From the NCBI RefSeq assembly GCF_016903815.1, contig NZ_CP069973.1: a stretch of 64,000 bases of DNA; one strand, 5' to 3'. Origin of the DNA: Escherichia coli (GTDB lineage Bacteria; Pseudomonadota; Gammaproteobacteria; Enterobacterales; Enterobacteriaceae). Below the pieces are notes generated by a model. That model was not told the origin of the DNA. It did not search any database and worked only from the letters and a program-made list of their open reading frames with translations. This document shows, in pieces, positions 63,630-64,000 of this stretch (positions within the stretch are counted from its first letter, which is position 1; each line of letters starts with the position of its first letter). A program made the translations under genes and the position numbers.

Positions 63630-63941
63630 ATGCTCTTCATCGAAACGGAAATTTTTACTGAAGATGTTCAAAAACTGCTGACCGACGATGAATTCAGTCG
63701 TTTTCAGTTTTTCCTGGCCTTGAATCCTGACTATGGTGAGGTAATACCTGAAACTGGTGGGTTAAGAAAGGTTCGATGGGTGTCAGGAGGAAAGGGGAAA
63801 CGTGCTGGTGTCAGGGTTATTTACTTTCATCAGGTTAAACATTATGAGATCAGATTACTGCTTATTTATCGTAAGGGTATTAAAGATGATCTGTCTCCCC
63901 AGGAAAAAGCAATGCTCCGGTTGTTAAATACGAGGTGGTAA
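63630..63941 (+). CDS. HigB-2-like RelE/ParE-superfamily toxin (103 aa)
   Basis: Translation MLFIETEIFTEDVQKLLTDDEFSRFQFFLALNPDYGEVIPETGGLRKVRWVSGGKGKRAGVRVIYFH... resembles recalled Vibrio HigB-2 (…GTGGLRKIR…GKGKRGGSRIIYY…); toxin-first gene order. Confidence 0.7.
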   Translation: MLFIETEIFTEDVQKLLTDDEFSRFQFFLALNPDYGEVIPETGGLRKVRWVSGGKGKRAGVRVIYFHQVKHYEIRLLLIYRKGIKDDLSPQEKAMLRLLNTRW

Positions 63942-64000
63942 ATGGATAAGGCACTTTTTGAGCGGTTGACTCACAGCATGGCCCAGATGAATGAAATTAT
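63942..64000 (+). CDS. Putative HigA-2-like antitoxin, N-terminal fragment (runs off the window)
   Basis: The ATG lies 1 nt after the toxin stop; translation MDKALFERLTHSMAQMNEI...; only 19 codons are visible. Confidence 0.45.
   Translation, partial: MDKALFERLTHSMAQMNEI

Follow-up and report, generated by a model that had tools for sequence, protein, structure and literature searches.

A probable HigB-2/HigA-2-type toxin-antitoxin operon beside fdhE on the Escherichia coli chromosome

The two genes and their products

The stretch of Escherichia coli DNA analysed here (64,000 nucleotides (nt) of contig NZ_CP069973.1, hereafter the window) ends within a pair of adjacent plus-strand genes. The first one encodes a protein of 103 residues, whereas the open reading frame (ORF) of the second one translates as MDKALFERLTHSMAQMNEI and runs off the end of the window. 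In the initial annotation, these genes were proposed to form a type II toxin-antitoxin module resembling HigB-2/HigA-2, with the toxin first, and this identification was supported by the homology of both proteins, the catalytic residues, the fold and a helix-turn-helix (HTH) domain. The same annotation placed the truncated ORF 1 nt behind the 103-residue one. Both ORFs proved to be real, but the toxin stop codon TAA (63939-63941) was directly followed by the antitoxin ATG (63942-63944), so that not a single base separates the two genes.

The two motifs on which the initial annotation had relied were both found in the toxin ORF, GGLRKVRW at residues 43-50 and GKGKRAGVRVIYFH at residues 54-67. 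When the toxin was compared with the type member of the family, Vibrio cholerae HigB-2, the similarity covered the full length of the protein. A phmmer search aligned residues 2-99 without gaps to the HigB-2 chains of the Protein Data Bank (PDB) with an expectation value (E) of 1.5e-19, and BLASTP returned 41 identical residues out of 95 (43% identity, E 1e-24). The active site of V. cholerae HigB2 was established by mutagenesis as Arg51, Arg64, Tyr82 and Lys84 (PMC5416850). In the ungapped alignment, these positions correspond, with a constant offset of 2, to R49, R62, Y80 and K82 of the E. coli toxin, and the four residues were invariant in 19 homologous sequences. A profile search of the PDB with a wider alignment (A5) gave E 1e-41 to HigB-2. 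As this alignment includes the V. cholerae sequence, the value was not counted as independent evidence.

The AlphaFold (AF2) model of the toxin, with a predicted local distance difference test score (pLDDT) of 85.6 and a predicted template modelling score (pTM) of 0.78, displayed the element order beta-alpha-alpha-beta-beta-beta-alpha and the RelE/BECR fold with its C-terminal helix. When this model was compared with the PDB by Foldseek, ranks 1-11 were all occupied by HigB2 chains, with template modelling (TM) scores of 0.76-0.86 and root-mean-square deviations of 1.4-3.4 Å. The next fold matches were PfiT and RelE proteins.

To complete the second gene, the sequence was extended past position 64,000 with that of E. 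coli strain 7/2 (NZ_CP023820, locus L001). Positions 1-6601 of this locus are 100% identical to positions 57400-64000 of the window, and it was therefore regarded as a safe extension. The complete antitoxin counts 96 residues (MDKALFERLTHSMAQMNEIIEGTRHPSRTFEVDAMKIKEIRRASGLSQSKFAELISVSVDTLRNWEQGRRSPTGPAKALLRAIANDPQHVLQALNR) and is encoded at L001 6543-6833, its end corresponding to window position 64232. Its C-terminal part contains an Xre-type HTH (residues 37-75), recognised by the Pfam families HTH_3 (40 bits, cutoff 23) and HTH_31 (35.7 bits, cutoff 27). The NCBIfam model NF041265, named 'NadS family', gave 60.4 bits for a curated cutoff of 60. Furthermore, residues 5-89 were matched to V. 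cholerae HigA-2 with E between 8e-9 and 4e-8. The best single PDB match was the HTH-only protein Atu1735 (2PPX, E 1e-10), which aligned with the HTH half, and the N-terminus of the antitoxin was conserved among enterobacterial orthologues.

The antitoxin gene lies directly downstream of the toxin gene in one operon, and the same layout was observed in three other genera. A Shine-Dalgarno-like motif precedes the antitoxin ATG (Table 1), and no comparable motif was found upstream of the toxin ATG (GGCGTATAATTATG). Beyond the window, at a distance of some 37-80 nt from the antitoxin stop codon, a hairpin is followed by UUUU (folding free energy -30.7 kcal/mol, z -3). On the minus strand beneath the pair there was no ORF of 30 residues or more, and Rfam gave no match at the locus.

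Palindromes and candidate promoters in the control region

Two operator-like sites, O1 and O2, were detected immediately upstream of the toxin gene (Table 1). O1 is the sole exact occurrence of GTACG-N7-CGTAC within the window. In V. cholerae, HigA2 protects a single inverted repeat, TGTACGC-N5-GCGTACA, from just past the -35 element across the -10 element (PMC11006873). This footprinted repeat is GTACG-N7-CGTAC written in another way, and the core and spacing of O1 are identical to it. When the window was searched with TACGYCAWTGRCGTA, allowing at most 2 mismatches, 2 matches were obtained, O1 and O2, versus 0.34 expected; both lay at most 55 bp ahead of the toxin start codon. O1 was kept in Enterobacter and Cronobacter, and also in Salmonella, where its outer bases are altered, and the block AGC.A.TGGCGTA of O2 was invariant across four genera.

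By homology, HigA-2 is predicted to bind to both palindromes. The residues of V. cholerae HigA2 that contact the bases are R68, E71, N72 and R77 (PMC11006873), and the E. coli antitoxin keeps two of the four, N72 as N64 and R77 as R69. The recognition helix was invariant among the enterobacterial orthologues, and the HTH segment as a whole was nearly invariant between genera.

Two candidate promoters were distinguished in this region, and either of them is overlapped by an operator-like site. The best match to the sigma-70 consensus has O2 between its hexamers, and its -10 hexamer TATAAT was conserved in E. coli and Enterobacter only, being absent in Salmonella and Cronobacter. The alternative candidate, which the scan did not report, was read from alignment A2. 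It was better conserved: in the other genera, its -35 element reads TTGACG, and its -10 element reads TACTAT in Salmonella and TAACAT in Cronobacter. Transcripts from it would have a leader of about 13 nt that lacks a Shine-Dalgarno sequence.

Table 1. Position, strand and source of the features at the locus (window coordinates; a dot marks features without strand)
Feature	Position	Strand	Source or remark
higB-2-like toxin gene, RelE superfamily (BECR fold), by homology	63630..63941	+	103-residue ORF
higA-2-like antitoxin gene, by homology, 5' end (19 codons)	63942..64000	+	translation; rest cut by the window end
Shine-Dalgarno-like GAGGTGG for the antitoxin, within the 3' end of the toxin gene	63932..63938	+	direct sequence reading
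Operator-like site O1, perfect 8-1-8 palindrome GTACGTCA-A-TGACGTAC, core GTACG-N7-CGTAC	63576..63592	.	repeat search
Operator-like site O2, imperfect palindrome TAAGCCA-A-TGGCGTA	63610..63624	.	centre 33 bp from the O1 centre
Candidate promoter, best sigma-70 consensus match TTGTTA-16-TATAAT (10/12), O2 between the hexamers	63601..63628	+	promoter scan; identical locus L001 6202-6229
Alternative candidate promoter, -35 ATGACG inside O1, -10 TACTCT (63605-63610)	63584..63610	+	by-eye reading of alignment A2
Divergent alpha/beta-hydrolase (Abhydrolase_3) gene; context, not a toxin-antitoxin component	62493..63401	-	Pfam PF07859, E 4e-68
604-residue ORF	60510..62324	+	inside the 2394-bp insertion

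Distribution, history and neighbours of the pair

In a survey of 5426 complete E. coli genomes, the toxin-antitoxin region (the last 601 bases of the window) was present in 2644, nearly always in a single chromosomal copy. The antitoxin gene was found full-length and single-copy in 2635 of these 5426 genomes, and the divergent hydrolase gene in 2639. The pair and the hydrolase gene, which share a control region of 228 bp, co-occur almost perfectly in E. coli. A gene for a protein of 604 residues, situated on the other side of the hydrolase gene, was carried by 1064 genomes.

The site was also examined in related genera. In Salmonella, Enterobacter and Cronobacter, the pair lies directly upstream of fdhE-fdoIHG, with which it is convergent. 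The gene order in Enterobacter and in the avian pathogenic E. coli (APEC) strain IMT5155 is fabY, hydrolase (minus strand), higB-2 and higA-2, while Salmonella and Cronobacter retained the pair without the hydrolase. None of the three genera has the 604-residue gene. Compared with IMT5155, the strain of the window contains an insertion of 2394 bp at 60095-62488, of low guanine-plus-cytosine (GC) content, which carries the 604-residue gene; the GC content of the region is 35-45% versus about 54% in the flanks. In K-12 MG1655 (L002 4915-5105 compared with L001 3176-7702), the first 480 bp of this insertion are kept, including about 65 nt of the 604-residue gene. The following 4.5 kb are missing, namely the remainder of that gene, the hydrolase gene, both toxin-antitoxin genes and a further two small ORFs. 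As K-12 retains the beginning of the insertion, its present state was taken to result from a secondary deletion.

Thus, the pair has long resided beside fdhE, where it is usually accompanied by the divergent esterase-like gene. The site shared across genera, the difference in frequency between the two elements (2644 versus 1064 genomes) and the absence of the insertion from IMT5155 indicated that the 604-residue gene is the newcomer.

Between genera, the proportion of non-synonymous differences (pN) in the pair was 0.12-0.19, compared with 0.64-0.85 for synonymous differences (pS), which corresponds to purifying selection and argues that these genes are not chance ORFs. These proportions are given in place of dN/dS, which could not be computed for most between-genus comparisons, the synonymous sites being saturated. 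We also observed that the pS of the pair was far above that of the adjacent core gene fdhE (0.45-0.52; L001, L003, L005 and L007), although the synteny is identical. This excess of synonymous divergence could stem either from weakly biased codon usage or from repeated replacement of alleles at the site. More distant relatives are frequent on plasmids, with 893 records, the largest group being that of Acinetobacter. The nearest plasmid copies, 71-73% identical, were on Salmonella plasmids.

The 604-residue protein had no sequence match in Pfam, NCBIfam or the PDB, and its gene is split by the Prokaryotic Genome Annotation Pipeline (PGAP) into a 'partial hypothetical' and a 'transposase'. Among distant homologues, the only invariant residues, apart from the start methionine, were C499, D504, R505 and N575. 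The protein carries the sequence GCKSAKDRT, a CX5R motif, and CKSAKDRT is the catalytic motif of the inositol polyphosphate 4-phosphatase INPP4B. Its confident AF2 model (pLDDT 85.8, pTM 0.86) was closest to Salmonella SopB (8JZL, E 1e-6) and to Legionella SidP and SidF. From its motif and its modelled fold, the gene probably encodes an undescribed and unannotated homologue of the SopB/SidF-like CX5R phosphoinositide phosphatases. Its carriers include O157:H7.

At its right end, the insertion repeats the higA-2 3' end together with the downstream hairpin, over 105 bp and with 87% identity (the two copies lie at window 62391-62494 and L001 6808-6912), and the copy in the window has a perfect 19-bp stem. 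Because of this repeat, the hydrolase-higBA-2 unit is flanked by direct repeats. Beyond the window, between higA-2 and yiiE, two small ORFs of 73 residues (rich in Arg and Cys) and 92 residues were noted at L001 6909-7131 and 7192-7470, equivalent to window positions 64308-64530 and 64591-64869. Neither had a Pfam or NCBIfam match, and RefSeq calls the 92-residue ORF hypothetical.

Relation to known systems, proposed mechanism and alternatives

The closest characterised relative is the HigB-2/HigA-2 pair of the V. cholerae superintegron (PDB 5JA8, 5JA9, 5JAA and 8A0X). Both pairs have the toxin first, and their toxins share the same four catalytic residues, an ungapped alignment and the fold (TM 0.86). 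Both antitoxins would combine an N-terminal neutralising segment, predicted in the case of E. coli, with a C-terminal HTH, and the operator core is common to the two systems. In contrast, the E. coli pair occupies a conserved core-like chromosomal site beside fdhE and not an integron cassette. Two operator-like sites are present instead of one, its antitoxin is shorter (96 versus 104 residues) and two of the four base contacts are changed. The relatives in V. cholerae and Acinetobacter baumannii were shown to possess RNase toxins, to be autorepressed and to stabilise plasmids (for A. baumannii, PMC5906591). HigBA2 of A. baumannii pAB120, named by its authors a higBA variant of this kind, resembles the E. 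coli pair as described in its toxin-first order, RNase toxin and self-repressing HTH antitoxin, and it is able to stabilise plasmids (PMC5906591). It differs in being plasmid-borne and mobile.

K-12 HigBA (YgjN/YgjM), HigBA of Rts1 and Salmonella SehAB also have the toxin before the antitoxin and belong to the broad RelE superfamily. However, their toxins form another family: the HigB-like structures 5IFG and 5YCL matched the toxin model with TM scores of 0.43-0.44 only (E >0.3). Their antitoxins are far larger (about 140 residues; SehB, 142) and of another architecture, with an N-terminal dimerisation domain, and SehA acts by inhibiting RNase III and not by mRNA cleavage. The E. coli pair does not fall into this group, given its 96-residue antitoxin and the lack of any PDB sequence match to K-12 or Shigella HigBA. 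SehAB (STM4030.S/STM4031) had been suspected as the characterised orthologue from its nearby locus and was rejected as a member of the other Hig family, SehB being 46% identical to K-12 HigA and SehA 40% identical to K-12 HigB. The paper that first described SehAB carries a retraction flag.

E. coli RelBE shares with the pair the RelE-type fold and the active-site logic, and V. cholerae HigB2 was described as closest to RelE (PMC5416850). RelE chains were weaker fold matches of the toxin model (TM 0.50-0.58) and had no detectable sequence match to the toxin. Moreover, RelBE is antitoxin-first, and RelB is of the ribbon-helix-helix and not of the HTH type. Similarly, the HTH half of the antitoxin resembles those of the MqsA/Atu1735 type, but the MqsA models scored it below threshold (TIGR03830, 40 versus 61.8 bits; PF15731, 22 versus 30 bits). 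The antitoxin also lacks the zinc-binding N-terminal domain of MqsA, and its toxin partner is not MqsR.

The pair is already known and catalogued as an ordinary system of the HigB-2/HigA-2 type. The exact toxin protein is entered in UniRef as "Toxin HigB-2" and at NCBI as "type II toxin-antitoxin system RelE/ParE family toxin", and the E. coli pair appears in papers that used Prokka. In the RefSeq records (L001 and L010), the antitoxin is a "NadS family protein" and the toxin is often a "hypothetical protein". A literature search found no paper that explains the name "NadS". A nadS annotated by PGAP is mentioned in one paper for K-12 BW25113; that gene is a different member of the family, since no second DNA-level copy of the antitoxin gene was present in any E. 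coli genome.

Taken together, the sequence comparisons and the model indicated, with a probability of about 0.82, that the two genes form a chromosomal type II toxin-antitoxin operon like that of V. cholerae HigB-2/HigA-2, with a mechanism assigned by homology. Following this scheme, HigB-2 would enter the ribosomal A site and cleave the translating mRNA by means of R49, R62, Y80 and K82. The N-terminal segment of HigA-2 would fold onto the toxin and neutralise it, and a HigA-2 dimer would bind to O1 and O2, thereby covering either candidate promoter and repressing the operon. Translation of the toxin would be kept low and that of the antitoxin favoured, as only the latter has a Shine-Dalgarno sequence and is coupled through the TAA/ATG junction. 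The hairpin and U-run past the antitoxin stop codon would terminate the transcript.

Several observations weigh against this interpretation. First, the toxin obtained 17.6 bits (E 0.0045) with PF06296 ("RelE"), the Pfam family that holds HigB-2, whose gathering cutoff is 27, and it matched no NCBIfam model. Both checks proposed in the initial annotation were favourable, this shortfall being a caveat to its profile criterion. The direct comparison with HigB-2 was unambiguous, and PF06296 was still the top Pfam family for the toxin. V. cholerae HigB-2 itself reaches 33.5 bits only, and some toxin orthologues at 71-73% identity carry PF06296, so that the shortfall was read as a weakness of the model rather than as non-membership. 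Second, the N-terminal segment of the antitoxin aligned weakly and with gaps to V. cholerae HigA-2, the score coming mostly from the HTH half, and the other two base contacts differ (R68 is replaced by D60 and E71 by R63). Third, the TATAAT hexamer of the best promoter match (63623-63628) ends 1 nt before the toxin ATG. Transcription from it would consequently begin inside the toxin ORF and yield a message for the antitoxin alone. Fourth, the antitoxin orthologue of Salmonella enterica is frameshifted after about codon 9 (L003 4313-4357, L004 4313-4599). This leaves an 81-residue antitoxin ORF devoid of the 15 N-terminal residues, with the predicted toxin-neutralising segment, whereas the toxin ORF and its catalytic residues are intact, which suggests that the toxin is tolerable without a full antitoxin. 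Finally, a literature search, including by RefSeq accession, found no experiment on the E. coli pair or on these exact proteins, and a recent study showed that SehA, which is a toxin of the HigB family but of the other Hig lineage, is no RNase (PMC12817084). Homology alone is thus no proof of toxin activity.

As regards function, a main role in abortive infection against phages, which would be compatible with the same mechanism, is unlikely. RelE/ParE-superfamily toxins are discussed as defence toxins and the long chromosomal retention suggests a benefit for the host, but the toxin had no match in the PADLOC libraries, the antitoxin was recognised there by generic HTH models only, and no defence genes lie nearby. 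The pair might more generally be a host-beneficial module and not a selfish element, the HigA-2/'NadS' repressor also regulating the esterase-like gene or the pair serving in phage defence. This suggestion, to which we give an equally low weight, comes from the purifying selection at one site in at least four enterobacterial genera and from the control region with two HigA-2-type operator-like sites common to the pair and the esterase-like gene, which always accompanies it in E. coli and Enterobacter.

It is somewhat harder still to regard the pair as largely domesticated or attenuated, the HTH repressor (PGAP 'NadS family') being the selected component, possibly in control of the divergent esterase gene, and the toxin being weak or weakly expressed. 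The toxin ATG without a Shine-Dalgarno sequence, the truncated Salmonella antitoxin next to an intact toxin, and the nearly invariant HTH segment would all fit with this idea, as would the near-perfect co-occurrence with the hydrolase gene around a control region with two operator-like sites. However, the catalytic residues and the fold of the toxin are conserved under purifying selection, and the pair persists in Salmonella and Cronobacter, where the hydrolase is absent.

The initial annotation had further proposed that the pair possibly stabilises the adjacent accessory block. If it were such an addiction module, cells that lost the region would be killed by the freed toxin, and the block would thus be retained. 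The plasmid stabilisation by the V. cholerae and A. baumannii relatives, as well as the low GC content of the region and its variable presence in E. coli, could be cited in support. The history of the site makes this very improbable: the pair predates the 604-residue gene and is found more widely, occupying the same fdhE site in the three other genera, which lack that gene, IMT5155 has the hydrolase and the pair without the insertion, and a single 4.5-kb deletion in K-12 removed the pair together with the hydrolase and part of the insertion. Lastly, that the toxin retains the RelE fold and binds another protein instead of cleaving mRNA, for which SehA is the precedent, is the most remote of these possibilities, since SehA comes from the other Hig family and the present toxin has, without variation, the four residues that are catalytic in V. 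cholerae HigB2, whose activity is biochemically proven.

The HigB-2/HigA-2 assignment matters little by itself, as it adds one more correctly identified toxin-antitoxin pair of the RelE superfamily. The link to the solved V. cholerae pair nevertheless provides a predicted mechanism and a predicted operator for proteins that are inconsistently labelled. The analysis also unties the pair from its SopB-like neighbour, which is more interesting than the pair and deserves a study of its own. With its conserved site adjacent to fdhE and its natural presence or absence, K-12 being without it, the pair offers a convenient system in which to address the role of a long-resident chromosomal toxin-antitoxin pair.

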